The notes: generated by a model not told the origin, from the sequence alone. Counted from the first letter of the stretch, positions 24,779 through 50,470 are shown. The stretch: 64,000 nucleotides of DNA from an uncultured Dehalococcoidaceae bacterium (GCA_964597015.1 CAZQWO010000001.1:1291-65290); one strand, 5' to 3'. Made by a program: numbers and translations.

Positions 24779-26317
24779 TTGACGCCTGAAGTAAATATTG
24801 AAGAAGCTCAAATCGAGACGCCGCAGACCAGGCTGCACAAGCACCTGATCCAGCCGGAAGCGCTGCGCCTTATCCCTGAAGCTGTGGCGAGAAAGCACGC
24901 CGCCATTCCTCTGGAAATAAGCGGCAATGTGCTCCACGTTGCCATGGTCAACCCATCCGACATCATTGCCCTGGAGGCGCTGGCCACCCGAAGCCAGATG
25001 CACGTTGTGCCGGTGAAAGCCAGCGCGCAGGAAATCCAGGACGCCATAGATTTCAACTACCAGTCATATGAAGAAATTGAAAAACAGATATCCAGCATCT
25101 CGCTGGAAGAAGAGAAAACCGAGCCGCAGGTAAAGCTGGACACGGTAACCGATGCCCCGGTGGCCATGGCACTCGCCCTCATTATCGACGAAGCGGTTAA
25201 AGCCCGCGCCTCGGACATACATCTCCAGCCCCAGGAAGATAAGCTGCTGGTACGCTACCGCATCGATGGCACGCTGCACACCATGCTGTCGCTGCCGCTG
25301 TCAACGGCCACGCCGCTTATTTCTCGCATCAAGGTTCTGGCCAATATGAATATCGCCGACCATCACCGTCCTCAGGACGGTCATCTTTCGGTGCGAACCA
25401 AAAGCGGGCAGGCAATAGATATCCGCGTCGGCACCGTGGCCACGGTGTATGGAGAGATGGGTGCCTTGAGGCTCCTCGACAAGTCCAGGGCCATCATGAC
25501 CCTGACTGACCTCGGTTTTCTGTCCCAGAGCCTGTCCAAGTACGAAGAGATGCTCAAAATCCCGTACGGCATGCTTCTGGCCAGCGGACCCACCGGCGCC
25601 GGTAAAACCACCACCCTTTACGCTTCCATAAACTGCCTGGACTGCGTGGGCCGGAACATTATTACCATCGAGGACCCGGTGGAATACCGGTTCAAGCACA
25701 TTAACCAGATTCAGGTTAATCCACGTGCTGGACTCACCTTTGCCAGCGGGCTCAGGTCCATACTGCGCCTCGACCCGGACGTTATCCTGGTCGGTGAGAT
25801 ACGTGACGCGGAAACAGCCCGCATCGCCATTCAGTCGGCGCTCACCGGTCACCTGGTACTGTCTTCAATCCATGCCAATGATGCCGTTGGGGTGGTGTTC
25901 CGACTCCTGGACCTTGGTATTGAGCCTTTCCTGGTCGCCTCAGCGCTTATTGGTGTCATCGCCCAGCGGATGGTGCGGCGGGTCTGCCCCGACTGCGGGC
26001 AGATGACCCCGGTTCCACTCGTGGAGCAGATGGGTTATGAGAAAGAAATAGGCGAAGAACGAAAAGAGTTTCACAGCGGCAAGGGCTGCAAGTCATGTTC
26101 CAATACCGGCTACCACGGTCGGTTGGGGCTGTTTGAGATTCTGCAGGTCAGTGATGAAATACGGATGATGCTGCTCAACGGCACCACCACCGCCGAGCTT
26201 AGAAATCAAGCAACCAAGGATGGGATGGTGCCTTTAGTCAAGGACGGTATGTTGAAGGTTAAAGAGAATTTGACCACCCCTGCTGAAGTTCTCCGCAACG
26301 CATACTCCGTGGACTAG
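24779..26317 (+). CDS. pilB: type IV pilus assembly ATPase (GspE/PilB family), copy 1
   Basis: Walker A GPTGAGKTTTL. T2SSE N-domain LIPEAVARKHAAIPLE. Tetracysteine CPDC..CKSC. TTG start. Confidence 0.9.
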   Translation: MTPEVNIEEAQIETPQTRLHKHLIQPEALRLIPEAVARKHAAIPLEISGNVLHVAMVNPSDIIALEALATRSQMHVVPVKASAQEIQDAIDFNYQSYEEIEKQISSISLEEEKTEPQVKLDTVTDAPVAMALALIIDEAVKARASDIHLQPQEDKLLVRYRIDGTLHTMLSLPLSTATPLISRIKVLANMNIADHHRPQDGHLSVRTKSGQAIDIRVGTVATVYGEMGALRLLDKSRAIMTLTDLGFLSQSLSKYEEMLKIPYGMLLASGPTGAGKTTTLYASINCLDCVGRNIITIEDPVEYRFKHINQIQVNPRAGLTFASGLRSILRLDPDVILVGEIRDAETARIAIQSALTGHLVLSSIHANDAVGVVFRLLDLGIEPFLVASALIGVIAQRMVRRVCPDCGQMTPVPLVEQMGYEKEIGEERKEFHSGKGCKSCSNTGYHGRLGLFEILQVSDEIRMMLLNGTTTAELRNQATKDGMVPLVKDGMLKVKENLTTPAEVLRNAYSVD

Positions 26318-26382
26318 CGCTGCCCTGAGCCCATATTAAATCACCGCAAACATAGAGCAGGAGTGCCTCTGGGGAGAGACAG

Positions 26383-27603
26383 ATGGTTTTCCGATACATC
26401 GCCTATAACGAAAAGGGAGAGGTAGTTAAAGGCAAACTGCCGGCGGTCAATGAAGAAGCCGCCAACGACCTGCTTGGCTATGCCGGCTATCTGGCAATTA
26501 GCCTCAAGCCTTATATTCCTTTCCTTAATCCTTTCCTTAATATCGATAAGCTGACGTCCGGTCTGTCGCAGGTTAAGCCCGGCGATATCATCCTCGTGTA
26601 CCGGCAGATGGCCATGCTTCTGGAGTCGGGCATCGATATCGTGACGGCACTGGAACTGCTGCAGGAGCAGGCTACCAATCGGGCACTGAAGAGGGTCCTC
26701 GACGACGTAATCGCAGAACTGCGCGCTGGTCATCAGCTCTCCAGGGCGCTGAGCAAGCACCCCCATGTCTTTTCCCCCATTTACTGCAAACTGATAGGCG
26801 TCGGTGAGCAGAGCGGAGACCTTGAGACGATTCTCAGACAGGTGGCCGATTATATGGAAAAAGAAGTTACCACCGCCAAGGAGACCAAGAGCGCCTTGAT
26901 GTATCCGGCGATTACTTCGGTAGTGACGGTCGTGGTCATCGCGATCCTGGTGACGTTTGTCTTACCCAGCTTTGGCAGTCTGTACAGCTCGCTTGGCGTT
27001 GACATGCCCGCATCCGCCCAGCTGCTCATCGACCTGTCCGGTAAGCTGAAGGAGTACTGGACCTATCTCATGCTGGGCACACTGGCGGCTCTCGGCCTGA
27101 CTTATGTCTACATCAAAACGCCGAAAGGTCGCGCCAAACGGGACCGGCTGATTCTGCGCCTGCCATTGCTCGGGCGCGTGTGCCACCTGAACGAACTCGC
27201 CCGGATATGCCGGAGCATGTCGCTGCTGTTTCGCACCGGGCTGCCACTGACGGAAATACTCCCCCTGCTCATCCAGAGCAGCCGGAACCGGGCACTATCC
27301 CAGGCGCTGACCAATGTCCAGCAGGACATGATAAAGGGCGAGGGCATATCAAAGCCAATGTCCAAGAACCATCTCTTCCTGCCCATGATGGTGCAGATGG
27401 TAAGGGTCGGCGAGGAAACAGGCAACCTTGACGCCACACTGCTGGCAGTGTCCCGAAGTTACGAAGCCGAGGCCGAGGACAAGACACGCTCCCTCATCGC
27501 GCTAATCCAGCCGGTGATGACGCTGATTATCGGCATGATTATCGCTGGCATGGCCTTTTCCCTGGTTTCGGCGATGTATTCCATCTATGGACAGGGGTTC
27601 TAA
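26383..27603 (+). CDS. pilC: type IV pilus platform protein (GspF/PilC family), copy 1
   Basis: 406-aa protein with duplicated T2SSF domains and three membrane segments. Confidence 0.9.
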   Translation: MVFRYIAYNEKGEVVKGKLPAVNEEAANDLLGYAGYLAISLKPYIPFLNPFLNIDKLTSGLSQVKPGDIILVYRQMAMLLESGIDIVTALELLQEQATNRALKRVLDDVIAELRAGHQLSRALSKHPHVFSPIYCKLIGVGEQSGDLETILRQVADYMEKEVTTAKETKSALMYPAITSVVTVVVIAILVTFVLPSFGSLYSSLGVDMPASAQLLIDLSGKLKEYWTYLMLGTLAALGLTYVYIKTPKGRAKRDRLILRLPLLGRVCHLNELARICRSMSLLFRTGLPLTEILPLLIQSSRNRALSQALTNVQQDMIKGEGISKPMSKNHLFLPMMVQMVRVGEETGNLDATLLAVSRSYEAEAEDKTRSLIALIQPVMTLIIGMIIAGMAFSLVSAMYSIYGQGF

Positions 27604-27617
27604 CCGGGGAATTGATT

Positions 27618-28019
27618 ATGAGATTCTGGCAGAAAATTATGAATATCTATCGGCGGGAGTCAGGCATAACCTTTATGGAAACGGTTATTGCTCTGGCCAT
27701 CCTGGGCACTGTTTCCGTTTGTTTTCTCCACGGCTTAACCACGGCTTCCAAATCCGTTTTCATCACTGATGAGCATTCCACCGCCGAAAGCCTGGCCCAG
27801 AGCCAGATGGCATGGGTGAAAGATGCCAGCTATTCCTACAACGCCACCTCATACTCCGCCGCGCCGATTCCCGGCGGCAAGGATTACCGACAATACTCGG
27901 CCACGGTGTTAGCCGAGCCGCTACATACGCCGGATGATGGCCTCCAGAAAATCACCATAACCATTGAGCGCTCCGGCAAAGGAATATTTAATCTTGCAGG
28001 GTATAAGGTCAACCGATGA
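27618..28019 (+). CDS. prepilin-type minor pilin/pseudopilin
   Basis: ..RRESG/ITFMETVIALAILG is a class III signal with Gly-1 and Glu+5. Start is ambiguous among TTG 27612, ATG 27618 (GGGGA SD) and ATG 27639. Confidence 0.75.
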   Translation: MRFWQKIMNIYRRESGITFMETVIALAILGTVSVCFLHGLTTASKSVFITDEHSTAESLAQSQMAWVKDASYSYNATSYSAAPIPGGKDYRQYSATVLAEPLHTPDDGLQKITITIERSGKGIFNLAGYKVNR

Positions 28020-28546
28020 AACGCGGTGAGAAAGGGTACACACTTATCGAATTAGCCGTAGCTGTCACCATCATGGTGCTGGTGAGCGGTGCCGCCTCCA
28101 TAGCCATAATTCAGATTTTAAAGGGTACGGAGACGAACAATACCCATATGAACGCCGTGCGCCAAGTGCAGAATGCCGGTTACTCGATATGCCGTGATGC
28201 GAGAATGGCACAGAGCATTGATACGGATAATTTGACGGCACCGGATTTCCTGGTCTTCAACTGGACGGAATGGGATAGCGAAGACGAGGAAATATATCAT
28301 TCGGCTACCTATTCTTTTGAAGGCCTGGCCGAAGGTATAGGTAGCCTGAAAAGAGCTCACTGGAGCAGCGCCGGGGCAAATGAACAGACCCTTATCGCAC
28401 AGCATATTTATTACAGTCCGGCGAACCCGGATGACAGCAGTAAAGCTGCCTATCCGGCCCCATTGCTGACCCTGCAACTCACCTCCATCGTTGGGGATGA
28501 AATGGAGATAAGAGAATACCGCATCAAACATCGACCCAATATCTAG
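28016..28546 (+). CDS. prepilin-type minor pilin
   Basis: MKRGEKG/YTLIELAVAVTIMVLV N-terminal methylation motif. ATGA overlap with the upstream gene. Confidence 0.8.
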   Translation: MKRGEKGYTLIELAVAVTIMVLVSGAASIAIIQILKGTETNNTHMNAVRQVQNAGYSICRDARMAQSIDTDNLTAPDFLVFNWTEWDSEDEEIYHSATYSFEGLAEGIGSLKRAHWSSAGANEQTLIAQHIYYSPANPDDSSKAAYPAPLLTLQLTSIVGDEMEIREYRIKHRPNI

Positions 28547-28560: not shown

Positions 28561-29415
28561 ATGCGTAGAATCTGGCGATTAATAATGAAAGGAGAACTGG
28601 GGCAGGCTTTCCCGATTACGCTGGCCTTCTTAATTATCGGCGGGCTGACCATTCTGCCCAGCCTGAACCTGACTTATTCCAGTGCCAAAACAAGTAACAT
28701 GCTTCAGGACGGCATAAAGGGCACCTATGCGGCCGATGCCGGTATTGAAGATACTCTGTGGGCGCGGGCACACGACGCGGAGCCTTCCAGCCAGCTATCA
28801 GAAAATATCAACGGCATGCCGGTAAATATCCAGACCGTAGACGAAGGCGAATATACCCTTTATCTTGGTGAATTTATTGAACCCGGTGACCACAATGACT
28901 ATCTTGACGTGGCCGGTAATATTACCTGGGATGCCGGAGCCGGTGCTTGCAAATATACCATTACCGTCATCTGGCAGCCGGAATCCGGATTACCGAAAAT
29001 ACATCTGGTGGGAGTTGGCGCCAGGATTCCTCCCGGCTACAGTTATGTGGCGGGGTCGGCGGCTGATTTTACGGAAAACCTGTCCACTGATGAACCGGAT
29101 GAAACCCTGGATTCGCAGGGCGCGTACCTGCTGGACTGGGAACTGGACTCGCCATATCCCTACGTGACCGAGACCGAACCGGTGAAAACACAGATTTTCT
29201 ACATAACCGGAAGCGGAGACCTGGAGGGATATTACGCCTGGGTGGTCGCCAACCGGAATGATATCGGTGCGGTGGGTGAAATCACCGGCACATTCTACGA
29301 AATCACCGCCACCGCCCTTAATCCAGAGAATAACCAGGCCTCGGCAACAATCGTTGCCAAGGCAATGATTGGCGGTGGAAACACGTATATTACATCACGG
29401 CATATCAGCAATTAA
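28561..29415 (+). CDS. PilX-like pilus-associated protein
   Basis: N-terminal hydrophobic segment GQAFPITLAFLIIGGL followed by YAADAGIEDTLW, resembling the PilX N-terminal pattern. No Glu+5. Confidence 0.5.
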   Translation: MRRIWRLIMKGELGQAFPITLAFLIIGGLTILPSLNLTYSSAKTSNMLQDGIKGTYAADAGIEDTLWARAHDAEPSSQLSENINGMPVNIQTVDEGEYTLYLGEFIEPGDHNDYLDVAGNITWDAGAGACKYTITVIWQPESGLPKIHLVGVGARIPPGYSYVAGSAADFTENLSTDEPDETLDSQGAYLLDWELDSPYPYVTETEPVKTQIFYITGSGDLEGYYAWVVANRNDIGAVGEITGTFYEITATALNPENNQASATIVAKAMIGGGNTYITSRHISN

Positions 29416-29436: not shown

Positions 29437-29988
29437 ATGAAGATTAGTAAGAAAAGCTGGTTGTCCATCGGCGTCGGCCTGTTCCTCATTGCCTTGGTGG
29501 GCCTGTGGACGGTCTATTCACAACAGTCCGGCGAGAAGAACCAGCTGAAAGAAGAGCTTGCCCAGGCCAAGGCAAGGCTGACCTTGATTCAGATCGAGCA
29601 GCTGGCGAACCAGCAGAGTGAGCTCGAGTGGCAACTCGATGAAACAATGCGGCAGTCTGAATCTGCCCGGGAAACGCTCTCACAGCCGATGAACAGCATA
29701 ATCATCAGCGATATTTTATTCCGCACGGCCGAGGCCAACAGCGTGAATATCACCACGATAAGCTCCTCAGGGGCAAGCCAGATGACCCTGGCTGGCGTTC
29801 CCTGCCAGGCGCTGCCTCTCACCGCCAATATCGAGGGAGAAGTGGCCGACCTGGTTGCTTTCATCACCGAGCTCAATGGCGACCTTGCTACTATTAATTT
29901 AAAGGCAGTGAGCATGGAAATACCCGCTGGAGACAGGAAGCCCACTGCCAGCATTCAGATAGAAGCTTACACGTACGAAGGAAGTTAG
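29437..29988 (+). CDS. PilO-like pilus alignment protein
   Basis: One N-terminal TM helix, a coiled-coil (QLKEELAQAKARLTLIQIEQL), and a C-terminal ferredoxin-like segment ..IEGEVADLVAFITELN.. Confidence 0.6.
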   Translation: MKISKKSWLSIGVGLFLIALVGLWTVYSQQSGEKNQLKEELAQAKARLTLIQIEQLANQQSELEWQLDETMRQSESARETLSQPMNSIIISDILFRTAEANSVNITTISSSGASQMTLAGVPCQALPLTANIEGEVADLVAFITELNGDLATINLKAVSMEIPAGDRKPTASIQIEAYTYEGS

Positions 29989-29991: not shown

Positions 29992-31446
29992 ATGTCAGAT
30001 AGAGTAATCACTTTATATATCGACGATACCAGCATCCGGCTTCTGGTAACCGGCGGCAAACGGATCAAGAAATGGGCGGATGTAGCTCTGGAACCGGGCA
30101 TGGTGAAAAATGCCGTGGTGCTGAAGCAGGAAGAGGTTGCCACTAAAATAAAGCAGCTTTTCAAAGTCCGGAAGATAAACGCGAAGAGAGTTACCCTTGG
30201 CATCAGTGGGCTGCACTGCCTCACCCGGCCGATTCTACTGCCTCAGATGCCAAAAGACATGCTGCAGGAAGCAGTAAGGCGGGAGGCAAACCGGGTACTG
30301 CCGGTTTCTTCCGAGCAGCTTTATCTCCAGTGGCAGTCCATCCCCGCACCGGAGGGAAAACTGCAGGTCTTCCTGGTAGCGATTCCCCGTACTGCCACCG
30401 ATGCCCTGTTCAGTACGCTGCGGCTGGCTGGCCTCAAGCCAGACCTGATGGACCTGAAACCGATGCTCCTGGCCAGAATGGTAAAGGATACCATGGCGGT
30501 TATCGTGGATGTTCAGCCAAACGAATTTGATATCGTTGTCATGGCGGGCGGAATTCCCCAGCCCATCCGCTCCGTCCATTTCCCCGATGAAGCACCATCT
30601 TGGGCGGAAAAGATGACAATGATTAAAGACGATGTCAGCCGGACCATTGAATTCTACAACACCAACAATCCGGAAATGCCACTGGCGACAACGCTGCCTA
30701 TCTGGGTTTCCGGGGAACTGGCCAATGAAGCCGAACAGTGCCAGGTACTCTCCGATGGACTTAAGCGGCCGGTCCTGCCTCTGGCGCCACCGTTTGAGAG
30801 CCCCGATGGACTTGACCCGAATCGTTACACGGCGAATATGGGCCTGGTTCTCAAGAAAACCGCCCCAACAAACGGCACGGGACTTCTGGTAAACGAGCTC
30901 AATGTACTGCCCGCTGCCTACCAGCCCGAGCCCATTTCTCTCACCAGAATCCTGATGGTGCCCGGTGTGGTCGTCGCCATCAGCCTGCTCCTGTTCCTGG
31001 CGCTTATGATTCAAAACACTACCGCTGACACCGCCGAAATGCGGGACCAGTTAAATACTACCAATCAGCTCCTGCAGCAGAAAATGGCCCAGAAGCAAGA
31101 ATATGCCGATGCTATCGCTGAGCTGCAGAAGAAAAATAAAAATGCTGAGACCTCTGGCGGTAATTTTGCCCTCGCCGTGTCTAACCTGAAAACACAGAGC
31201 AAAGCAGTGAACGGCAACCTGGAAATAACCGTTAACAGCCTGCCGGAGACGGTGAGCCTGAGTGGTATCAGCCAAGCTCAGAATTCAATGACCATCAGGG
31301 GACAGGCCCAGAGCGAGGAGCATATCCTGTCATACCTGAGAGGGCTTGAAGCCAGTGAGCGCTTCTCCAGCATTACCATTACCAGTCTCACCAGAACATC
31401 TGGCGGGAATATCGGTTTCAATGCCATTCTTAAGGCGGGAGAATAA
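29992..31446 (+). CDS. PilM-PilN fusion protein, copy 1
   Basis: Actin-like PilM N-terminal ~310 aa, a TM helix (MVPGVVVAISLLLFLALMI), then a coiled-coil/PilN-like C-terminus. Confidence 0.75.
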   Translation: MSDRVITLYIDDTSIRLLVTGGKRIKKWADVALEPGMVKNAVVLKQEEVATKIKQLFKVRKINAKRVTLGISGLHCLTRPILLPQMPKDMLQEAVRREANRVLPVSSEQLYLQWQSIPAPEGKLQVFLVAIPRTATDALFSTLRLAGLKPDLMDLKPMLLARMVKDTMAVIVDVQPNEFDIVVMAGGIPQPIRSVHFPDEAPSWAEKMTMIKDDVSRTIEFYNTNNPEMPLATTLPIWVSGELANEAEQCQVLSDGLKRPVLPLAPPFESPDGLDPNRYTANMGLVLKKTAPTNGTGLLVNELNVLPAAYQPEPISLTRILMVPGVVVAISLLLFLALMIQNTTADTAEMRDQLNTTNQLLQQKMAQKQEYADAIAELQKKNKNAETSGGNFALAVSNLKTQSKAVNGNLEITVNSLPETVSLSGISQAQNSMTIRGQAQSEEHILSYLRGLEASERFSSITITSLTRTSGGNIGFNAILKAGE

Positions 31447-31449: not shown

Positions 31450-32520
31450 ATGGATATTTTTAATCTGGTTCGATCGGCCGCGGAAAAGGGTGCTTCAGAC
31501 CTGCATCTGGTGGCAGATAATGCTCCCATTTTCCGCATCAACGGCCTGCTTCAGCCTGAAGCCGACCTTCCACTCCTGACACCGGATGACATCACTCAGG
31601 CCTTCCAGCAAGTTACCTCGGAAAAAGAAAGGGCTGATTTTCATCGCCGGATGGAGCTTGACTTTGGCCATACACTACCTGATGTTGGCCGAATGCGCTG
31701 CAACGCTGGCAGACAGCGCGGCACCCTTACCCTTACCATCAGGCTCATCCCCCTGGTCATTCCCACTCTGGAAGAACTTGGTTTGCCGGCGATATGCCGG
31801 GACCTCATCATGAAGCCCAGGGGACTGGTGGTGGTCAGCGGACCCAGCGGCAGCGGCAAATCCACCACGCTGGCGGCCATGATTAATTATCTGAACTCCA
31901 CGGAAAACAGGCGCGTGATTACCCTTGAAGACCCGATTGAATATATTTATGCCAACAACCGGTGTACCATCACACAGCGTGAACTGGGCAGTGACACCCT
32001 GTCGTTCGCTGATGCTCTGAAGCATATACTGCGTCAGGACCCGGATATCATTCTGGTGGGCGAGATGAGAGACCCGGAAACAGCCGCGGCCGTGCTTACT
32101 GTGGCCGAGACCGGCCACCTGGTCCTGACCACCGGGCATGCTACCAGCGCCGCGCAGGCGGTGGAAAGAATCATTGACCTTTTCCCCACCCATGAACGGG
32201 ACCTTGCCCAGACCCGGCTGGCTTCCCTGCTCATCGGCATTCTATGCCAGACACTGGTCCCCAAATTGGATGGCGCCGGGAGGGCGGCCGCGATTGAGGT
32301 CATGCTGGCCCTGCCGGCCGTGAAAAACATCATCCGCGAGGGCAGAATTCACCAGCTGCCCAACACCATCGCGACACAGACCCAATCGGGGATGATGCTG
32401 CTGGACCATGCCCTGTTAAACCTTTACCGCAGTGGCATCATCAGCGGCGATAGCCTGTTTTCGGTATGTAACGACCGTGAAGAGGTGGCCAAGCTCATGG
32501 GCAAAGTCGGGGTGGAGTAA
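31450..32520 (+). CDS. pilT: twitching-motility retraction ATPase
   Basis: ASDLHL..PIFRINGLL. Walker A GPSGSGKST. ILVGEMRD. 356 aa, PilT-sized. Confidence 0.9.
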   Translation: MDIFNLVRSAAEKGASDLHLVADNAPIFRINGLLQPEADLPLLTPDDITQAFQQVTSEKERADFHRRMELDFGHTLPDVGRMRCNAGRQRGTLTLTIRLIPLVIPTLEELGLPAICRDLIMKPRGLVVVSGPSGSGKSTTLAAMINYLNSTENRRVITLEDPIEYIYANNRCTITQRELGSDTLSFADALKHILRQDPDIILVGEMRDPETAAAVLTVAETGHLVLTTGHATSAAQAVERIIDLFPTHERDLAQTRLASLLIGILCQTLVPKLDGAGRAAAIEVMLALPAVKNIIREGRIHQLPNTIATQTQSGMMLLDHALLNLYRSGIISGDSLFSVCNDREEVAKLMGKVGVE

Positions 32521-32565: not shown

Positions 32566-32601
32566 AGTCCCCTCCTGCTCTCCCGGGAGGGGACTTTTTT
32601 A
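32566..32601 (+). terminator. rho-independent terminator after pilT
   Basis: AGTCCCCTCC-(10-nt loop)-GGAGGGGACT, a perfect 10-bp stem, followed by TTTTTT. Confidence 0.7.
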
Positions 32602-32644: not shown

Positions 32645-33457
32645 ATGGATGTAATTCTGGCTATTGTCTTGGCCATGTTCGGTGCTGCCGTAGGCAGCTT
32701 CCTGAATGTGTGCATTGACCGCCTGCCCGTGGGCAAGTCAATACTTCGCCCGCCCTCGCACTGTGACTCCTGCCAGCACCCGCTTTCCCCCGCCGACCTG
32801 GTTCCTCTATTCAGCTACCTGTGCCTGCGCCGTCGCTGCCATTACTGCAATGCGCCCATTCCCTGGCGGCCCTTCTGGGTGGAACTGGGCACGGCGCTGC
32901 TCTTCGCCCTGAGCTACTGGTTCTTTGGGCTGAGCGTTCAATTTGCGGTCATTGCTTTTTACGGCAGCTTATTTCTGGTCATCGGCATCATTGACCTGGA
33001 ACACCAGCTGATACTCAACAAAATCTCCTACCCCGCGATGGCGCTGGCGCTGGTTATTTCTATATTCCAGCCTCCACCGGGATTTGCAGATACCTTTTCT
33101 TTACCATGGCCTTTATATGGAATCATTAACGGCATCACGGGTGCTGCTATAGGATTGGTGTATATTCTGATTGTCTATTATATATACCTTTGGCTTCGTA
33201 AACGTGAGGGGTTTGGAATTGGAGATTTTAAACTGGTAATACTGATGGGCCTGGTAACGGGTTCAGGAATGATAATAGTAGCCATAACCCTGGGTGCGCT
33301 CATTGGTAGTGCCGCTGGCATTATTCTGCTTCTGATGAAGAAAAAGAAGTGGCTGGGCTGTCTTCCCTTCGGCACTTTTCTGGCCATCGCCACCATGCTC
33401 ACCCTCATCTGGGGAAATGACATCCTCGGCTGGTATCTGGGACTGCTGCATTTATAG
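32645..33457 (+). CDS. pilD: prepilin peptidase (A24 family)
   Basis: N-terminal GSFLNVCIDRLP, Zn-type cysteines CDSC..CHYC, polytopic membrane body. Confidence 0.88.
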   Translation: MDVILAIVLAMFGAAVGSFLNVCIDRLPVGKSILRPPSHCDSCQHPLSPADLVPLFSYLCLRRRCHYCNAPIPWRPFWVELGTALLFALSYWFFGLSVQFAVIAFYGSLFLVIGIIDLEHQLILNKISYPAMALALVISIFQPPPGFADTFSLPWPLYGIINGITGAAIGLVYILIVYYIYLWLRKREGFGIGDFKLVILMGLVTGSGMIIVAITLGALIGSAAGIILLLMKKKKWLGCLPFGTFLAIATMLTLIWGNDILGWYLGLLHL

Positions 33458-33911: not shown

Positions 33912-33935
33912 TCCTGGCATCGCATCGGCGATAAT

Positions 33936-33970
33936 GACCTGAGGACAGCCGGGTCTTCGGGTCGTTTTTT
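33936..33970 (+). terminator. rho-independent terminator
   Basis: GACCTGAGG-(10-nt loop)-CTTCGGGTC, a 9-bp stem including 2 G-U pairs, followed by GTTTTTT. Confidence 0.5.
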
Positions 33971-41262: not shown

Positions 41263-41263
41263 A

Positions 41264-41935: not shown

Positions 41936-42016
41936 CCGGTTATCAGGCAACAAGTACTGTGTCCACTCACCCGAAAGGATTAGTACCCCACGCGTGAAAA
42001 TCACCTCTTCGCAGGA

Positions 42017-42045
42017 TTGTAAGTGAAATCGCCATGCTCTATGAT
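42017..42045 (+). promoter_or_regulatory. putative pilin promoter
   Basis: TTGTAA, 17-nt spacer, TATGAT, about 65 nt upstream of the first pilin ATG. Confidence 0.35.
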
Positions 42046-42583: not shown

Positions 42584-42623
42584 AGCAATCTTATTCCTAT
42601 AGAGGAGAGGAGGAGGTGAAGCA

Positions 42624-43097
42624 ATGAGGTTACCGAAAAGAGGCGAGAAGGGGTTCACGCTGATTGAGCTGCTCATCGTGGTCGCCATCTTGGGCGTACT
42701 GGCGGCGGTGGTCATCCCCAATGTGGGGCGGTTCATCGGCCGCGGCGAATCGGAGGCGGCGGATACCGAGCTGAGCAACGTCCAGTCTGCGGTGGTCGCC
42801 ATGATGGTTGACAACCAGATATCCACACTAAGAAATGCCAAGGACGGCGCTGCCAACGCCACCAGAAATATGTGCATCTTTCCCGATGACAGCGCAGTCG
42901 GCGACAAGTACCCGGACGCCAATGGTGATAACTTCTCAGCTGGTGACGGCATCGGCTTCGTGCTCTACCAGCACGATATGAATGCTGACGCCGCCAACAC
43001 CAGCCTGGTCAACTATGTCGCCACGCAGTACACCAAGGGCACCTATACGTGTGACGCGTCAGGCACGGTGACCCAGCGTGAGACGGGGTATGATTAA
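42624..43097 (+). CDS. type IV major pilin, paralog 2 (two cysteines)
   Basis: First 42 residues identical to paralog 1. C-terminal ..NMCIFPDD.. and ..TYTCDASG... Confidence 0.9.
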   Translation: MRLPKRGEKGFTLIELLIVVAILGVLAAVVIPNVGRFIGRGESEAADTELSNVQSAVVAMMVDNQISTLRNAKDGAANATRNMCIFPDDSAVGDKYPDANGDNFSAGDGIGFVLYQHDMNADAANTSLVNYVATQYTKGTYTCDASGTVTQRETGYD

Positions 43098-43175
43098 AAT
43101 CGCTTACATGTGACGGGCGGTGGAAGTTGGGCGGCGGAGAATAAGCTAGGAGAGGTGGTTGAGGGGGTGAGGTCA

Positions 43176-43209
43176 GAGAGAAGCCCGAAATGGGCTTCTC
43201 TCTCTTTTT
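43176..43209 (+). terminator. rho-independent terminator after the pilin pair
   Basis: GAGAGAAGCCC-GAAAT-GGGCTTCTCTC, a perfect 11-bp stem, followed by TCTTTTT. Confidence 0.8.
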
Positions 43210-43295: not shown

Positions 43296-44837
43296 CTACC
43301 CGCTGGTTTGAGTCGTCAGCTGGATAGAACCACCGGAGGTATACGGGTAACCTTCCGGAGGGGGTATGGGCGTGGCAAAGCGTCCGCTTTCCTCAAGTGC
43401 CGTAAGATAGTATCGAAAAGACAGGTAATCACCCGCCATACAGTTAATACTTATATCGTTACCCTTGTGTGATAATGTACTCACCTCGACGCCCAGTTTT
43501 TCCGCCTCCTGTACAATTACCCTGATATCATCGTTGAAACTCTTGTCCCTGACAATAATGGAACTATATTCACTGATGGCCTGCTGCAGAGGTTCACGCC
43601 GCTCTATTTCCGCTTTCTTCCTTAACAACTGGGCATTGAGGGCAACATCTTTCATTGCCATAACTGACGTCTTCCTCATTTCCTCGCCCGTAAGCTGCCA
43701 TAATGGAAAGACAAGGGCAATGGCGGCTATGATAGTAACGACTGAGTAGACCTGCTTTAAGGTTGGCCGCCAGGGCATATAAGTCTGGGGAAGCAGATTC
43801 ATATCGAGCGTTACGGCTCCAGCATCACCATTGCCATTGACATCTCGCATTGCCATTTCCTTACGCATGGCAAGCCCGATATTCGCCGCATACTGGGATA
43901 TCGGCAGGAACTCGGGACAATCCAGCGGTGGTGCCAGTGGCTCTATATTAAATTCAAGCCCGCCCAGCAGCTTCTCCATCAGTTCCGGATTAACAGACAT
44001 CTGCCCGGTGATGTAGAGTGGAGTGGCCATATCAAACGGCGTAGCAACATGACCGGCGTTATAATGTTCAACTATCATACCAAGTTGTGCCGCCAGATAC
44101 TCGGCGGCATCTTCAATGCTCATATTATCCGGCCGCCACGCCAGTGAATGCATGACTTCAGGCACACCTTTAACCAAAATGACAATGTCGAAGTTTGTGG
44201 GTTCAATATTCAGAATCAGAGCCTCCTTTTTACCGACGGCCCTGGCCAGTGCCATCGTCTTGAGCTCAATGCTCTGGGTAGTGATACCGGCCGCCTTCAA
44301 GGCAAGCACTATGTCATCAATAATCTCTCTGGGCACACCGACTGTGAATACATGGCTATCCTTCTCATCAGCGCTCAGTGTCTGCCAGAAAAAGTAGAGG
44401 ATTTCCTTGGGAACAGGCATTATATCCCGGGCAATCTCATCGACCGACTCCGCAAGGGTTGGTGCTGGTGGCAGGCTGGGCGTGGGTATGAGACGGCTTA
44501 TTGTGTAGAGACCACTTATGCTGATATTTACCTTGCTGGCTTTGATACCGCTTGAATTCATTAGCCGCTTGACGAAGACACCCAGGTCGGGCTCGACTCT
44601 GTCACCTATTTGCTCTGCTTCTTCCGATTCAAACGGGGCATCAGCCCATCTTTTAACCACCCCGCCACTCGTCTCCATGATGCTTACGCCGGTTGTGCTG
44701 ATATCAAGAGTAACAACCTTCCCAGAAACAAACCGCGCCAGCACTCTCTCCATTGTTTTCAGGAGCTTCTTAATCGCGGTGCTTAAGTCAAGAGCCAGCA
44801 CACCTTGAGATTTAACTTCGCTTTTCTGTTCCGCCAA
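43296..44837 (-). CDS. PilM-PilN fusion protein, copy 2
   Basis: Same architecture as 29992-31446: an actin-like N-terminal part, a TM helix (VYSVVTIIAAIALVFPLW), and a PilN-like end ..YLTALEESGRFA... TTG start behind GAGGTGG. Confidence 0.7.
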   Translation of the reverse strand: MAEQKSEVKSQGVLALDLSTAIKKLLKTMERVLARFVSGKVVTLDISTTGVSIMETSGGVVKRWADAPFESEEAEQIGDRVEPDLGVFVKRLMNSSGIKASKVNISISGLYTISRLIPTPSLPPAPTLAESVDEIARDIMPVPKEILYFFWQTLSADEKDSHVFTVGVPREIIDDIVLALKAAGITTQSIELKTMALARAVGKKEALILNIEPTNFDIVILVKGVPEVMHSLAWRPDNMSIEDAAEYLAAQLGMIVEHYNAGHVATPFDMATPLYITGQMSVNPELMEKLLGGLEFNIEPLAPPLDCPEFLPISQYAANIGLAMRKEMAMRDVNGNGDAGAVTLDMNLLPQTYMPWRPTLKQVYSVVTIIAAIALVFPLWQLTGEEMRKTSVMAMKDVALNAQLLRKKAEIERREPLQQAISEYSSIIVRDKSFNDDIRVIVQEAEKLGVEVSTLSHKGNDISINCMAGDYLSFRYYLTALEESGRFATPIPPPEGYPYTSGGSIQLTTQTSG

Positions 44838-44873: not shown

Positions 44874-45824
44874 TTACCCTTGGGGCGGTTTAGAATACAA
44901 TTCAATAGCTAACTTAGCCACAGTGTCATAGACAGTCTCTTCACTGCCAAAGAATTCCTCTGCTGTTTCCACATCCGACCCATCAAACTGCCGGACAGTG
45001 CCATCGGCCTCGCAGGTGTAATAATATTCAGTAACCGGTATGTCAATATAACTCATCTTCTGATAACTAGATGTATTGTCCGCTGTAATCCGGTCATGCT
45101 CATACAGCAAATAACCAGCTGACGGTGTTCCTTCTCCGGTATACCCCTTTTCCCCAGCGGTGGTGATAGCATCGGGAAAAGCTGTCATATCGTTAATCGC
45201 AATTCCGTCTTCAAAATATGTCGGGTTAGGAATCTCATCAAGGCCGTTGTCCGCCATCATATCGGACACGGCCTGTATTACAGCGCTGAATTCAGCTCTT
45301 CGCATCGCTTCCTCTTCCTCTAATTGCACTTGTACCCAATTGAGCTCCACTTTTTTAAGAATCATGGTTTCCAACGTTTTGCCGGCATCAAGGTCGGCTA
45401 TGAAAGCCATAATGGTATCAAAGTCAGCCTGTACCCTGATATCACCAAAGGATAGAACGTGATAGGTGCGCTCACCCATTTTTTTGGCTGAGGGTTTGCC
45501 GGGGGCAGAAATATGAAACTTGCCGCTTTCTGGAGTAACATCGATGCCGTTTTCCCTGGCGATATCAACGATTTTCGCCAGGGCATCAGGCGTTTCTATT
45601 GGCTCCAGAGCTTCGTTTACCTTATCATATTTGTCCTGCAATTCCTCCATACTAGGTAAAGGCTTGTTCACCACCACCAGGGTTTTATTTATCTTTTCAT
45701 TAAGTTCCTTCTGTTGTGGTCCCTGCTGGATGTAAACAAAGCCAAGTCCAATGTATATAATGACGCAGACACCCACTACGACGAGAAATCCTACGCGGCG
45801 TATTCTGGTCAATATTTCCTGCAT
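44874..45824 (-). CDS. PilO-like membrane protein with a C-terminal pilin-head-like extension
   Basis: N-terminal TM helix, coiled-coil, and a ..VQADFDTIMAFIADLDAG.. segment parallel the set-1 PilO-like protein. The last ~110 aa contain GYLLYEHD..ADNTSS..YYYTCEADGTVRQ, colinear with pilin paralog 2 GFVLYQHD..ADAANTS..GTYTCDASGTVTQ. Confidence 0.6.
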   Translation of the reverse strand: MQEILTRIRRVGFLVVVGVCVIIYIGLGFVYIQQGPQQKELNEKINKTLVVVNKPLPSMEELQDKYDKVNEALEPIETPDALAKIVDIARENGIDVTPESGKFHISAPGKPSAKKMGERTYHVLSFGDIRVQADFDTIMAFIADLDAGKTLETMILKKVELNWVQVQLEEEEAMRRAEFSAVIQAVSDMMADNGLDEIPNPTYFEDGIAINDMTAFPDAITTAGEKGYTGEGTPSAGYLLYEHDRITADNTSSYQKMSYIDIPVTEYYYTCEADGTVRQFDGSDVETAEEFFGSEETVYDTVAKLAIELYSKPPQG

Positions 45825-45898: not shown

Positions 45899-46294
45899 TT
45901 ACTTCCACCGCTCGCGCAGTGCCCGCTGTACCGTCTCCTCAATCGTTTCTTCTAAGGTCTTGGTTACTTTCTTATCTCTCTTGTCTTTCTCTTCCGCTTC
46001 TTTTGCTTCCCTCTGCAACCTGACGAGCTCATCATCGTAGAAAGTCCAGTATAGCTGTCGTCCACGCCTCCAACCTACTATCCAGACCATTACCAGGCCA
46101 AAGATGGCAACCGGCGCCACAATCCCAATGTTGATATCCTGAAAGAGCAGGATGATAACGATGATTAATACGACAAAGAGAAATACCGCCACATCAAGGT
46201 CCCACCTGGCAACCCTGGCCCTCTCTTTCGCCCGGCGAGCCGCTTCCCGTCTTATTTCTTCTCTTACTGGCCAGGGTGTGCTCTCTTGGCTCAA
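45899..46294 (-). CDS. hypothetical two-helix membrane protein with charged termini
   Basis: 131 aa. Two hydrophobic helices flanked by Arg/Glu/Lys-rich segments. TTG start behind AAGGAGGGG. Confidence 0.55.
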   Translation of the reverse strand: MSQESTPWPVREEIRREAARRAKERARVARWDLDVAVFLFVVLIIVIILLFQDINIGIVAPVAIFGLVMVWIVGWRRGRQLYWTFYDDELVRLQREAKEAEEKDKRDKKVTKTLEETIEETVQRALRERWK

Positions 46295-46521
46295 CGTGCC
46301 CCTCCTTTCGCCCGGTCGATACAGGCCACAGGTTTGAAATTATTATACTCCATTAATCATCAGCTCAAATATGGGAATTTTTGGTATTAACGGAAAAGTA
46401 TCCTGACGCTTTTCTATTTCAGCAAGTCCGGCGTTCTTCACCTCTAATACCGGCAGCTTCCGAAGCCGCACAGAGTCCATATTTCTGCCATCAGTGTAAT
46501 GGGTGAATTGCCTTCTGTCAA

Positions 46522-47772
46522 TTATCCGAAGGCACCAGTAAGCGTATACATAGGCATAACAACGGAGAGAGCAATGAATCCAACCATAAGGGCGATGCCG
46601 ATAGTGCTGACAGGGCCTATCATGCCCACCATGGCAGATATCTTCTCTTCCGCCGTCGTTTCAAAGAAATCCGCCACCACCCCCATGGTGAAATCAAGGG
46701 TATTGCTTTCCTCTCCCACGGCAACCATCTGCACCAGTAAAGGCGGAAACACGCTTATTCGGGACATCGGTCCCGCTAATCCCTCACCGAGAAGCAACCG
46801 TTCGTTCACCCTGTTCAGGGCGTCACGGAAGACCATATTGGTGGTCGACTGTGGCAGTATCTCCATTGTTTCCTGCAGTTTAATTCCAGCACTGACCATC
46901 ACTGACAGCGTTCTGGCGAAGCGTCCCAGTTCTGACATGAGTGCCGGGGGGCCGATAATCGGCATGCTTATGCGCAGACGGTCAAGTATCCGTTTCCCGG
47001 ACGGCCTTTTCATCATCCAGAGCGCGACGGCAAATAATACCGCGCCGCCAACGACAAGATGCAGCGGATAATTCTGCACAAACTCGGTCAGCGCAATGAG
47101 TATTCTGGTGGGTAAAGGTAATTCAACACTCATCGCGGTGAACATATCGAGCATCTTGGGCATGACAAAGGTAATCATCAGAATGACCACAGCGACGCCA
47201 ACGCCCATGACTATCATTGGGTAACTCAACGCTTTTTTAACCCTCTGGGTCATCGCCGAGTGCCGCTCCAAGTAATCAGCCATCTGGTTGAGTACTGAGT
47301 CCAGATTGCCTGTTTCCTCACCAACAGCAATGGTACGGCAGTAAATTTCACTAAAGGCTTTCGGGTGCTTCTTTACTGCCTGTGAGAAAGAACCTCCGGA
47401 ACGGATGTCATTTAATACGCTGGATAAAATGCTTTTGAAAGCGCGGCTGCTGGCCACCTGTCCCTGCAGTATTTCCAGCGCTGGCAGCAGTGAAATGCCG
47501 GAGCGCAGCAAAGTGGCCATCTGGCGGGAAAAAACGACGATATCACGGGACTTTAGCGTGAAGAGCGAAGGCAAAGCCTCCTCCAGGCTGAACATGGACG
47601 GGGCAACTTCAACATGCTCCGGAATATATCCCTTGGCGATTAGCTGTCGCTCGGCAGCAATCTCACTGGTTGCCTTAATATTGCCCTTTACCAGATTGCC
47701 TTCTCTGGTGGTCGCTATATAGCGGTAGTTAATTTCTTTCAGTTTTCCGGGCGCTTCAATCGTTCCCGCCAT
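46522..47772 (-). CDS. pilC: type IV pilus platform protein (GspF/PilC family), copy 2
   Basis: 416 aa with duplicated T2SSF domains. Confidence 0.9.
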   Translation of the reverse strand: MAGTIEAPGKLKEINYRYIATTREGNLVKGNIKATSEIAAERQLIAKGYIPEHVEVAPSMFSLEEALPSLFTLKSRDIVVFSRQMATLLRSGISLLPALEILQGQVASSRAFKSILSSVLNDIRSGGSFSQAVKKHPKAFSEIYCRTIAVGEETGNLDSVLNQMADYLERHSAMTQRVKKALSYPMIVMGVGVAVVILMITFVMPKMLDMFTAMSVELPLPTRILIALTEFVQNYPLHLVVGGAVLFAVALWMMKRPSGKRILDRLRISMPIIGPPALMSELGRFARTLSVMVSAGIKLQETMEILPQSTTNMVFRDALNRVNERLLLGEGLAGPMSRISVFPPLLVQMVAVGEESNTLDFTMGVVADFFETTAEEKISAMVGMIGPVSTIGIALMVGFIALSVVMPMYTLTGAFG

Positions 47773-47781: not shown

Positions 47782-49485
47782 TTAAGTGATTGAGAATACG
47801 TTACGCAGGATCTCATATGGAGTGGTAACTCCCTCTTTAACCTTCATCATCCCGTCATGCCACAGAGAGATCATGCCTTCCTTGTTGGCTTCCTGGCGCA
47901 TTTCATCGGAATCGGTACCTTTGATAATTATGCGGCGGATGGCCTCAGTGACTACTAGAACTTCAAAGATGCCGGTTCGCCCCAGATAGCCTGTACCGGC
48001 GCAGAAATTACAACCGGCACCAATAATAAATTCAGAGCGTTTTTCTCCCATTTCTTCTTCATAAGCTTCCCGCTCGTCAGGGGCTATCTCAGTGGGGTGA
48101 GAACAGTACGGGCAGACACGCCGTACCATTCTCTGGGCAATAACGCCAATCAACGCCGAAGAAATGAGGAATGGCTCAATACCCAGGTCAACCATTCGGA
48201 TAATGGTGCTCACGGTATCATTGGCGTGGACTGAAGACAACACCAGATGGCCGGTAAGGGCCGCCTGCGTGGAAATCTGCGCCGTTTCCGCGTCACGTAT
48301 CTCACCGACCAGTATCACGTCAGGGTCAAGCCGCATTGTGGCTCTCAGTCCGGTGGCGAAGGTAACAGCGGCTGACGGATTGACCTGCATCTGATTGATA
48401 TTGGCAAAATGATATTCCACCGGGTCTTCAATGGTGATAATCTTGCGTCCAACCGAGTCCAGCGTGTTTACCGAGGCATACTGGGTAGTCGTTTTACCGG
48501 AACCGGTGGGACCGCTGATCAGTATCATGCCAAAAGGCGTCTTCAGCATCATCATGTATTTTCCCAGTGATTCCGGCAGGAATCCGATTTCCGGCAATGG
48601 CATGAAGGCGAAAGCCTTGTCCAGGATTCTCATCACCGCCATCTCACCGTATATCGTGTTGGAAGTAGCCACACGGATATCCACCTCACGGTCACCCATA
48701 TCAAAGGTAATCTGACCGTCCTGAGGTCGACGGCGCTCGGCGATGTTCAACGCCGCCATGATTTTCACGCGGGAAAGTAGCGGCGCATGCACGCTTAACG
48801 GCAGGGCCATCACCTCGTTCAGGATACCGTCAATCCGGTAGCGAACGCGCAACCTGTCTTCTTGAGGTTCAACATGTACATCGGAGGCACGGTCCCGTAC
48901 CGCCTGTTTTATCAGCAGGTCAATAGCACGCACCACCGGGGCCTGGGCGATTATTTCCGGTGAAACCCGTGCTTCTCTCATCCCGGCGGCGCCACGGTAC
49001 CGGGTGGGAATCTGACTCAGCTGTTCTTCAAGTTCACCACCGATGCGGTAGTTCAGGTCTATCATTTCCTGAATGTCCTGAGCCGTACTGATAACCGGCT
49101 CAATTCTTCTCATGGTTATTGCCGCCAGGTCTTCAATCGCCTCTATATCCTTGGGGTCTTCCATGGCAATCACGATGGCCCCGTCTTTCAAGGCCACCGG
49201 GATGATGCCGTATTTCCTGGCCACTGATTCCGGGATTAATTTCACCGCATCGGTCTTTACACCTTCTCTTCTCAGGTTGATGAACGGTATTCCCAGCTGC
49301 AGACTGATAAAGAATGCCAGTTGCTGCTGCGTAACCATACGTTGCTGAACCAAAATATGCTCTAGCCGGTCACCCGTCTTCTGCTGCAGCTCATGGGCAC
49401 GCTGTACCTGCTCATCGTTTATAATTCCGGCCTCAACCAGAATATTCAGGACATTTCTCTTCACGCTTTTTGCCGGCGCTTCCAT
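47782..49485 (-). CDS. pilB: type IV pilus assembly ATPase (GspE/PilB family), copy 2
   Basis: Walker A GPTGSGKTTTQ. Tetracysteine CPYC..CNFC. N-terminal T2SSE_N domain. Confidence 0.9.
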   Translation of the reverse strand: MEAPAKSVKRNVLNILVEAGIINDEQVQRAHELQQKTGDRLEHILVQQRMVTQQQLAFFISLQLGIPFINLRREGVKTDAVKLIPESVARKYGIIPVALKDGAIVIAMEDPKDIEAIEDLAAITMRRIEPVISTAQDIQEMIDLNYRIGGELEEQLSQIPTRYRGAAGMREARVSPEIIAQAPVVRAIDLLIKQAVRDRASDVHVEPQEDRLRVRYRIDGILNEVMALPLSVHAPLLSRVKIMAALNIAERRRPQDGQITFDMGDREVDIRVATSNTIYGEMAVMRILDKAFAFMPLPEIGFLPESLGKYMMMLKTPFGMILISGPTGSGKTTTQYASVNTLDSVGRKIITIEDPVEYHFANINQMQVNPSAAVTFATGLRATMRLDPDVILVGEIRDAETAQISTQAALTGHLVLSSVHANDTVSTIIRMVDLGIEPFLISSALIGVIAQRMVRRVCPYCSHPTEIAPDEREAYEEEMGEKRSEFIIGAGCNFCAGTGYLGRTGIFEVLVVTEAIRRIIIKGTDSDEMRQEANKEGMISLWHDGMMKVKEGVTTPYEILRNVFSIT

Positions 49486-49564
49486 TTCTCCCCCCTCAAA
49501 TTATCCCCATAGTATAAACCTGAAATTTCTTCAGCTCAGTGTTTACCCTGCCGGTGACTAACGG

Positions 49565-50470
49565 CTATTGACTCCTCGGTGAAATGGTTATTCGGCGCAC
49601 CCCTCTTCTTTCCGGCACGTTATCCTTTCCTTCCGGTCGCTCCGGTGAAATGTTAGCCTCGGGCAATTTGGCAACGAGCCCGGCAAGCAAGGGAGCAGGC
49701 TTATCCAGCACTATGGTTATGATGCTTCCCTTATTCCAGGAACCTGCGGTACGGACAAATTTTAGTTCAGGTGTGGTCTGCAGGTAGCTATACAATTTGG
49801 CCACCATTGTTGGCTCAATCGGCACTTCAACGTTTAACTCAACCTCGCCAGTATACAGTGACTCGCTTTCCTCCTTGGTTAAAACCACCGCTGGCGCTTC
49901 TTTCGCCACTGCCCTCCGTTCTTTGCCAGTCTTTTTGGGCTCTATTACTTCCGCTGCTGGCTCAACAACAGCCGACACCTCAGGCAGCGGCACCGCTTCT
50001 TCGGCCACCGGTTCTTCAACCTGACTCTCAAGCGGCTCCGGTTTTTCCTCCTCCGCAACCACTTCTTCTGGAGCCGGGACTGGCTCTGCCATTTTCTCCT
50101 CAGCGACCGGCTCGGCTATGGAAGCAATATCTTCTGCGGTCTCTTTCTGCACTGGCCTCTTTTGGCTTTTTACCTTCTCCGCTTCCTTTTTAGCCTCCGC
50201 AATAATCTTGTCTGCTTCCTGCCGGGCCTCTGCCGCCACCTGCGTTTTTACGCTGTCAACAATCTGCTCGGCACTGCTGATTGCCGCCTTGAGTATAGAG
50301 CGGACCGAAGACGAAGAAGAAGTGTCGCGCTGCTCCACGAGACCGTTCACCTGGTCAAACAGCTGTTCCGCATTTCCCTTATCTTCAGCAATCTCTCCCC
50401 CGCTGCTTTCCGCCTGCGGTTTGCTTTCCGTTCCCTTTGCTTCACGTTTCCGTCCGAGCAACCTGAACAT
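49565..50470 (-). CDS. hypothetical Glu/Ala/Pro-rich protein leading pilus gene set 2
   Basis: ATG 50470 lies 10 nt after GGAGGA; the track start at 50479 is TTG. An N-terminal helical AEARQEADKIIAEAKKEAEKV segment, an acidic proline-rich linker, and a ~100-aa C-terminal globular segment. Confidence 0.55.
   Translation of the reverse strand: MFRLLGRKREAKGTESKPQAESSGGEIAEDKGNAEQLFDQVNGLVEQRDTSSSSSVRSILKAAISSAEQIVDSVKTQVAAEARQEADKIIAEAKKEAEKVKSQKRPVQKETAEDIASIAEPVAEEKMAEPVPAPEEVVAEEEKPEPLESQVEEPVAEEAVPLPEVSAVVEPAAEVIEPKKTGKERRAVAKEAPAVVLTKEESESLYTGEVELNVEVPIEPTMVAKLYSYLQTTPELKFVRTAGSWNKGSIITIVLDKPAPLLAGLVAKLPEANISPERPEGKDNVPERRGVRRITISPRSQ

Follow-up and report, generated by a model that had tools for sequence, protein, structure and literature searches.

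Layout of the pilus locus

We analyzed a 64,000-nucleotide stretch of DNA (the window; GCA_964597015.1, CAZQWO010000001.1:1291-65290) from an uncultured Dehalococcoidaceae bacterium, in which positions 24779 to 50470 encode the components of type IV pili. This region of approximately 26 kb constitutes one super-locus for type IVa-like pili, conserved among uncultured Dehalococcoidales (Chloroflexota). Comparison of the encoded proteins indicates that it combines two anciently diverged, collinear assembly modules (set 1 and set 2). Both modules encode PilB, PilC, a PilO-like protein, and a PilM-PilN fusion, and the locus as a whole, not each set, has a single PilT, a single PilD, a triad of minor pilins, and a pair of major pilins. 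All 17 genes named in a preliminary description of this DNA were confirmed, with the same coordinates and families. As a correction to that description, the intervening region of roughly 10 kb (33.5 to 42.1 kb) is part of the pilus system.

The locus encodes the components that define type IVa systems: a PilB-type ATPase, PilC, the alignment proteins PilM/N/O, a major pilin, a prepilin peptidase, and PilT. Chloroflexota have been described as monoderm (PMC12488501). The absence of a secretin, noted earlier, holds for the window, given that neither a secretin nor a PilP candidate was found among the open reading frames (ORFs) scanned or annotated in the window. A regular-expression scan of all window ORFs of at least 60 amino acids (aa) found no prepilin signal beyond the pilins of the locus.

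For comparison, we scanned the GTDB species genomes with the histidine kinase gene of the locus, which yielded 41 loci, and examined the loci of relatives with flanks of up to 10 kb. Most of the 41 come from metagenome-assembled genomes (MAGs) assigned to Dehalococcoidales, Dehalococcoidaceae, or Dehalococcoidia, and the remainder are labeled only as Chloroflexi/Chloroflexota or uncultured bacterium. Close relatives (Dehalococcoidales MAGs) retain the exact layout of the window, and a contig identical to the window was found in one JGI and one ENA metagenome.

Set 1 lies on the plus strand. Its eight genes, pilB to pilT, form a compact operon with gaps of -4 to 66 nt, preceded by a promoter-like site (24704-24732) and closed by a strong terminator (32566-32595). 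The operon opens with the extension ATPase PilB1 (24779-26317; T2SSE, E = 7e-121, plus MshEN) and the platform protein PilC1 (26383-27603; two T2SSF domains, E = 3.7e-61), after which come three minor pilins. Minor pilin 1 (27612-28019), kept in all set-1 loci that reach its position, carries the class III signal motif G/ITFME and matches N_methyl with 17.1 bits, below the cutoff. The gene for minor pilin 2 (28016-28546; 176 aa; signal G/YTLIE; N_methyl 26.5 bits, E = 4.5e-6) overlaps it by 4 nt, and its product is the most PilA-like of the three, with 29% identity to PilA1. The third is a GspK/PilX-style protein of 284 aa (28561-29415; G/QAFPI) that lacks Glu5 and has one N-terminal transmembrane segment. 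It has no Pfam, NCBIfam, or PDB sequence match, and its family profile gave only noise against the PDB; weak homologues (27 to 42% identity, 379 to 1002 aa) occupy the equivalent position in set 2 of relatives.

The next gene encodes a PilO-like bitopic protein of 183 aa (29437-29988). It also has no direct Pfam or PDB sequence match, with noise in the profile comparison against the PDB, and was assigned by hhalign against the family of the 316-aa set-2 protein described below (probability 97.2%, E = 2.9e-11). PilM-PilN fusion 1 (PilMN1, 29992-31446; PilM_2, E = 2.4e-11; PilN, E = 2e-10) has its transmembrane segment at residues 314-332, and the final gene encodes the retraction ATPase PilT (31450-32520; TIGR01420, 412 bits versus a cutoff of 319). 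The prepilin peptidase gene pilD (32645-33457, plus strand; A24_N_bact, E = 6e-32; Peptidase_A24, E = 1.6e-11) forms a separate transcription unit, with the pilT terminator before it and another at 33933-33966 after it. PilD is the only prepilin peptidase in the window, as the preliminary description held, but its placement in set 1 needs refining: in loci with set 2 alone, pilD immediately precedes the kinase gene, so it is not specific to set 1 and belongs to the pilA/set-2 module as much as to set 1.

Set 2 lies on the minus strand. PilB2 (47782-49485; T2SSE, E = 3.4e-122), a type IVa PilB of full length whose N-terminal MshEN domain is complete, is followed by PilC2 (46522-47772; T2SSF, E = 1.7e-55), a 228-bp gap (46295-46521) where relatives hold three minor-pilin genes, a conserved 131-aa protein (45899-46294), a 316-aa protein (44874-45824), and PilM-PilN fusion 2 (PilMN2, 43296-44837; transmembrane residues 358-376). 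Pfam gives a sub-threshold PilM_2 match for PilMN2, which we assigned by its full-length homology to PilMN1. Among three set-2 proteins previously left unassigned, the 131-aa protein still has no assignable family; it has two predicted transmembrane segments and is present in every set-2 locus that covers its position. Its gene is tandemly duplicated in one relative (L025, 6052-6897). The 316-aa protein can now be read as PilO-like, with a pilin head inserted.

A conserved protein (301/304 aa) is encoded upstream of pilB2 (49565-50470, minus strand). All named members among its 116 homologues come from Dehalococcoidia or unclassified Chloroflexi MAGs. In its AlphaFold2 (AF2) model, a long helix is followed by an acidic, disordered linker and then by a C-terminal domain with a confidently predicted ferredoxin-like fold. 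Because the protein has no transmembrane segment, it is presumably cytoplasmic, and it possibly associates with the PilB2 hexamer. Structure searches with the model returned generic fold matches only, with no specific structural relative. The long helix also has weak, sub-threshold matches to ATP synthase b and FliH/V-ATPase E.

A pilin head within the set-2 PilO-like protein

The 316-aa protein has an N-terminal transmembrane helix, a coiled coil, and a ferredoxin-like domain. Its family comprises 298 homologues without informative names, of which the few labeled by organism are from Dehalococcoidia or Chloroflexi MAGs. The top PDB folds for its AF2 model are Pseudomonas aeruginosa PilO (2RJZ; probability 0.89 to 0.95, E = 0.15), with EpsM ranking lower. 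The PilO assignment combines topology, gene position, the hhalign comparison between the two copies, and this weak 2RJZ fold match, there being no Pfam PilO match.

Within this protein, residues ~170-296 form a predicted additional domain that precedes the last beta-strand. Aligned by hhalign, the major-pilin family matches residues 172-286 with a probability of 99.8% (E = 1.9e-30), from which we take the insert to be a homologue of the soluble head domain of the major pilin that this locus encodes. The AF2 models have a mean predicted local distance difference test (pLDDT) score of 60 to 65, and the insert has a pLDDT of ~30, so that its fold follows from sequence profiles alone. The insert varies among relatives: the protein of L020 (192 aa) has none, and those of L029, L031, and L037 (459 to 461 aa) have two copies. 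An exhaustive search also located the pilin-head module in several further architectures, the largest such protein having 1238 aa.

The inserts do not co-evolve with their cognate pilins: the cognate pilin had a mean rank of 8.1, versus 8.5 expected. The exception is L025, where the insert (5064-6035) and the pilin of the same locus (2888-3400) gave a local score of 431, compared to about 110 to 190 in other loci, which suggests recent gene conversion or recapture in that lineage. We also noted a YYTCEADGTV motif common to PilA2 and the insert of the window's 316-aa protein.

Paralogy of the two sets and loss of the set-2 triad

The two sets have a common gene order and, judged by their divergence, appear to be old paralogues. 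Identity between the copies is 53% for PilB, 36% for PilC, and 28% over 487 aa for PilMN, and the 183-aa PilO-like protein aligns with the N-terminal half of the 316-aa protein at 24% (BLASTP). Orthologues are closer than paralogues, with PilB1 73% identical in L040 and PilB2 73% identical in L034, both distant relatives. We rejected a recent duplication, which the preliminary description listed as a refuting outcome, on the identity levels between the copies. The suggestion in that description that the two PilBs might fall in different pilus subfamilies was not borne out. The best PDB matches of both are type IVa PilBs (5ZFR, 5TSG, 3JC8, and 6F8L; Geobacter, Myxococcus, and Thermus PilF), and neither reaches the cutoffs for ComGA, GspE, or TadA, indicating deep divergence without a subfamily difference. 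The cutoff of the PilB equivalog TIGR02538 (675 bits) is likewise unreached (500 and 542 bits).

We considered three other families for the sets. Assignment to Com systems was rejected on the scores for NF041000 (263 and 252 bits versus a cutoff of 300) and NF040999 (30.7 versus 75) and on the presence of PilM/PilN in both sets; assignment to type II secretion on the scores for TIGR02533 (507 and 523 bits versus 630) and the absence of a secretin in the window; and assignment to Tad/type IVc systems on the scores for TIGR03819 (51 and 47 bits versus 373).

The preliminary description pointed out an asymmetric split, with minor pilins and PilT only in set 1 and major pilins only beside set 2. 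The split is real, and the synteny comparison with relatives identifies its origin. Seven relatives (L014, L017, L020, L026, L031, L032, and L044) have three additional set-2 genes between pilC2 and the gene for the 131-aa protein. In six of these (L017, L020, L026, L031, L032, and L044) the interval measures 2.2 to 5.2 kb, versus 64 to 241 bp in loci without the additional genes. The genes form a triad, mp1'-mp2'-PilK', that encodes two prepilin-type proteins and a PilK/PilX-style protein of 379 to 1002 aa without Glu5, and it is weakly similar (25 to 46%) to the triad of set 1. Because it sits after pilC2, the ancestral order of set 2 was the same as that of set 1, B-C-mp-mp-K-(131)-O-MN.

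We counted losses on a neighbor-joining tree of the kinase and regulator, treated as a single locus. The triad is missing in the clade that includes the window, in L037, and in L034; L031, a close relative of L037, has it, and L014, which branches at the base of the window clade, retains it. On this tree, the set-2 triad appears to have been lost at least three times, including once in the window clade; in two of these three cases, the lineage has set 1 as well. Since the set 2 of relatives has its own triad, which disappeared on at least three occasions, the split is derived, a secondary reduction and not a designed division of labor.

Set 2 remains under purifying selection after the loss. 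Relative to L004 and L006, the ratio of nonsynonymous to synonymous substitution rates (dN/dS) is 0.07 to 0.38 for set 2 and 0.10 to 0.27 for set 1. PilB2 is 88 to 91% identical in the closest relatives and 82% identical in L013, and the state without the triad persists across a clade with kinase identities as low as 75%. Within the order, set 2 represents the core pilus cluster, converging on pilA with its kinase and regulator. Set 1 is a fixed module in about 20 genome and metagenome loci, in none of which does a major pilin adjoin it. Wherever the locus extends far enough, a 3-hydroxyisobutyrate-dehydrogenase-like gene precedes set 1, with L040 as the exception.

The tip and minor pilins of relatives vary greatly in length. 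PilK/PilX-style tip proteins in L026 (16950-19133), L032 (16251-19259), and L063 (102-2411), together with a minor pilin in L068 (62-1699), lie within a range of 176 to 1002 aa, and the size variation of the tip proteins suggests swapped adhesin domains. In L040, a groundwater Chloroflexi MAG, set 1 is inverted and adjoins a PilS-like kinase and regulator (1029-11831), with no pilin gene or set 2 within 9 kb downstream.

Major pilins and regulatory genes

The tandem major-pilin genes (42110-43097, plus strand) encode PilA1 (42110-42583) and PilA2 (42624-43097), each matching N_methyl with E ~1e-9. The proteins are 86% identical and have a 10-residue leader, F+1, and E+5; a terminator at 43175-43203 parts pilA2 from the convergent set 2. 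We rejected an assignment of one tandem pilin to each machine, since the first ~42 residues are identical and whether relatives have one pilA copy or two does not depend on how many sets they carry. PilA1 is free of cysteines; PilA2 contains two, in NMCIF and YTCDA.

Immediately upstream are genes for a PilS-like histidine kinase (6TM_PilS, HisKA_3, and HATPase_c) and a NarL-type response regulator (40093-41935, plus strand). Of the related loci that continue beyond the regulator, nearly all have this pair immediately before pilA, L040 being the exception. The kinase qualifies as PilS-type by its predicted six-transmembrane PilS membrane domain encoded beside a pilin gene (PF25323, 29.7 bits versus a cutoff of 27, with five hydrophobic segments by hydropathy). 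Aligning 27 intergenic regions, we identified a conserved candidate promoter/operator of pilA (41967-42045, plus strand), TCACCCGAAAGGATTAG ... AAAATCACCnnnTnGCAGGATTG ... TATGAT. This element is conserved at ≥80% in the alignment, occurs once in the window, and has 0 matches in shuffled sequences. Because it directly follows the kinase and regulator pair, it is a candidate binding site for the regulator. A search of the window did not find it upstream of set 1 or set 2.

The remainder of the region between the sets, all on the plus strand, encodes a conserved 110-aa protein and a GH3-like protein (33989-36138), a multi-pass membrane protein with GAF-GAF-GGDEF-HD-GYP domains and ~9 transmembrane segments (36220-39270), and the response regulator RR1 with a LuxR-type output domain (39284-39967). 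The GGDEF, HD, HHE, and GYP motifs of the multi-pass protein are all intact, and it is predicted to synthesize and break down cyclic di-GMP (c-di-GMP). The block of GH3, GGDEF, and regulator genes is restricted to loci that also carry set 1, and the same restriction holds for the genes of the 110-aa protein and the GH3-family protein (which resembles acyl-acid amido synthetases), both situated between pilD and the GGDEF gene. No Rfam family matched anywhere in the window, hence no c-di-GMP riboswitch of the kind found in Clostridioides difficile is present.

The two motors differ at their N termini. The MshEN domain contains two 24-residue motifs, RLGxx(L/V/I)(L/V/I)xxG(L/V/I)(L/V/I)xxxxLxxxLxxQ, that bind c-di-GMP and are separated by a 5-residue spacer. 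PilB1 lacks the first ~55 to 60 MshEN residues, the part that holds both motifs, and aligns with PDB PilBs only from reference residue 57 to 80 onward. This segment is missing in 9/9 PilB1 orthologues and kept in 11/11 PilB2 orthologues. PilB2 scores 47.6 bits against the c-di-GMP motif domain NF053729 (cutoff 38) and aligns from residue 7 of Myxococcus xanthus PilB. Both motifs and the 5-residue spacer are present in the PilB2 of the window, with RLG replaced by NVL and RLE. Binding of c-di-GMP by PilB2 is plausible on these motifs, and because PilB2 keeps the N-terminal half of MshEN that PilB1 is without, the two motors probably differ in regulation.

Shared parts or separate filaments

The explanation that best accounts for the locus, with a probability of about 0.5, is that two platforms share one PilA pool, the set-1 triad, PilD, and PilT, while their motors are regulated differently. 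In such a system, PilD would process PilA1, PilA2, and the set-1 minor pilins; both platforms would polymerize the common PilA pool, with the set-1 triad priming assembly; and the single PilT would retract the resulting pili. PilB1 and PilB2 would respond differently to c-di-GMP, an enzyme for which (the GGDEF-HD-GYP protein) is encoded between the sets. We infer both the sharing of parts and the control by c-di-GMP from the comparative data. Set 1 never adjoins a major pilin of its own, which argues that its triad consists of minor pilins and not of a separate fiber, and relatives whose set 2 contains the homologous triad also encode a separate pilA, as would be the case for minor pilins that need a major pilin from elsewhere.

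Several observations weigh against shared parts. A second PilT, further pilins, or another set of minor pilins could lie outside the visible 64 kb. L034 has no triad and no set 1 within 10 kb upstream, so set 2 may work without minor pilins, and if it does, sharing is unnecessary. The pilA operator is missing upstream of either set and thus gives no sign of co-regulation; the Rfam scan of the whole window revealed no c-di-GMP riboswitch; and the residues of PilB2 that would contact c-di-GMP are partly degenerate (NVL and RLE for RLG).

The two sets could instead build two filaments, a possibility we regard as unlikely but as the main rival. Set 2 would assemble a PilA1/PilA2 pilus that needs no minor pilins, and set 1 a short fiber or pseudopilus with the 176-aa protein as its main subunit, which PilT would retract, e.g., for DNA uptake, secretion, or twitching. 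PilA is linked to set 2 by the constant position of its gene there and by the pilin-head copy within the PilO-like protein of that set; L034 hints that a triad is dispensable for set 2; and TM7x, discussed below, produces two distinct filaments from two such loci. Set 1 follows the order ATPase, platform, pilins of Com and type II secretion operons, with pilT last, and the 176-aa protein is the most PilA-like of its three minor pilins (29%). However, its gene is translationally coupled and mid-operon, and the coexistence of a homologous triad with a separate major pilin in relatives makes the set-1 triad look minor. Both Com families score below cutoff (ComGA 263 versus 300, ComGC 30.7 versus 75), and set 1 has PilM, PilN, and PilO-like proteins, which Com systems lack. 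The large ORFs outside the locus are housekeeping genes, and no ComEA/ComEC was noticed in the window, in the course of annotation that included no search aimed at these proteins. Between shared parts and two filaments, the comparative data lean toward sharing. A variant with one pilin pool and two motors, in which a c-di-GMP switch toggles between static adhesive and dynamic pili of the same subunit, seems doubtful to us. It would have PilB2 activated through MshEN by c-di-GMP that the GGDEF-HD-GYP enzyme of the locus makes or degrades; PilB1, without this domain and co-transcribed with PilT, driving dynamic, retractile pili; and the pilin head of the set-2 PilO-like protein acting as an immobile pilin mimic where pili are assembled.

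Our view of the source genome is one contig, and the window spans nearly all of it (longest contig 65,426 bp), so the split might be an artefact of a single contig, with further pilT, minor-pilin, or major-pilin genes elsewhere that pair with one set. Parts can be dispersed, as in L040, where set 1 stands beside a kinase and regulator with no pilin or set 2 nearby, and TM7x has two additional pilin loci. We nonetheless judge this improbable: the absence of the triad is clean (a 228-bp gap) and recurs in three lineages, which resembles loss more than relocation, and Dehalococcoidia genomes are small (CP070693.1 is 1.12 Mb). It is highly improbable that set 2 is a redundant copy in decay, for which minor-pilin loss was the first step. 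Three genes are gone and PilMN2 is barely recognized by Pfam, but the six remaining genes are all intact, and decay fits poorly with the dN/dS values for set 2, with the identity of PilB2 among relatives, and with the persistence of the triad-less state across its clade.

Several features of sharing and control have counterparts in other bacteria. In Vibrio cholerae, several type IV pili (mannose-sensitive hemagglutinin [MSHA] and competence pili) share one PilD and one PilT, and the MSHA motor MshE is activated via its N-terminal c-di-GMP-binding MshEN domain. PilB2 retains a domain of the MshE type (5HTL match). V. cholerae itself is diderm with secretins, and each of its systems has its own major and minor pilins. 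P. aeruginosa uses PilS-PilR for pilin autoregulation. Like PilS, the kinase of the locus has a six-transmembrane PilS-type membrane domain and is encoded beside the major pilin gene, but it has a HisKA_3 transmitter, and its regulator is of the NarL/LuxR type and not of the NtrC/sigma-54 type; sensing of pilin by this kinase is putative.

The layout is not new, because similar asymmetric double systems have been described in Saccharibacteria and Clostridia. The fusion of PilM and PilN occurs in C. difficile, and this species and Clostridium perfringens, both monoderm, resemble the locus in combining two PilB/PilC pairs with only one pilT. The c-di-GMP riboswitch of C. difficile has as its counterpart here the PilS-like kinase and NarL-type regulator. 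The claim in the preliminary description that the arrangement is not a standard described layout finds no support, given the near-identical asymmetric layouts published for Nanosynbacter lyticus TM7x (PMC11623550) and C. perfringens (PMC6958937). In C. perfringens, PilM/N/O of the main locus are proposed to serve the pilB1-pilC1 operon as well, the only pilT is encoded elsewhere, and PilB2 binds c-di-GMP (PMC6958937). The second Clostridium set is without PilM/N/O genes, whereas both sets here have their own.

TM7x (Saccharibacteria) is a secretin-less organism and likewise has two PilB/C/M/N/O sets, with PilT, PilD, and most pilins in locus 1 only. Its locus 1 encodes PilB1, PilC1, PilT, PilM1N1O1, PilD, and five pilins, and its locus 2 encodes PilB2, PilC2, and PilM2N2O2, with no PilT; the authors discuss whether paralogous minor pilins of the first system may substitute for those of the second (PMC11623550). 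In TM7x, each system has its own major pilin, minor pilins of the second system exist, two filament types have been seen, and the loci are dispersed. Here, by contrast, one locus contains both sets and a single pair of near-identical pilins, and set 2 is without minor pilins.

Filamentous appendages and expressed pil genes have been reported in Dehalococcoides (PMC13085523), and our literature searches found no paper describing the pilus machinery or loci of Dehalococcoidia. The insertion of a pilin head in a PilO-like protein and the repeated loss of the minor pilins of one machine are the most original details of the locus. It provides a parts list of the pilus machinery for Dehalococcoidales, and the repeated loss of minor pilins from one of two co-resident machines constitutes a natural experiment on the sharing of minor-pilin primers between paralogous platforms. 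Dehalococcoidia are important in subsurface carbon and organohalide cycling.

Outside the pilus locus, the ten large ORFs that we scanned belong to glycogen/trehalose metabolism, molybdopterin oxidoreductase, aldehyde:ferredoxin oxidoreductase, radical SAM, and pyrimidine enzymes. Positions 1-20595 of the window, none of whose genes is related to the pilus locus, hold alpha-glucan/trehalose genes (branching-enzyme-like, MalQ, a 1121-aa alpha-amylase-family protein, and GlgE), a molybdopterin oxidoreductase with an NrfD-type membrane subunit, and the aldehyde:ferredoxin oxidoreductase. The window also includes a gene for GyrB, identified from the precomputed annotation of the identical contig.

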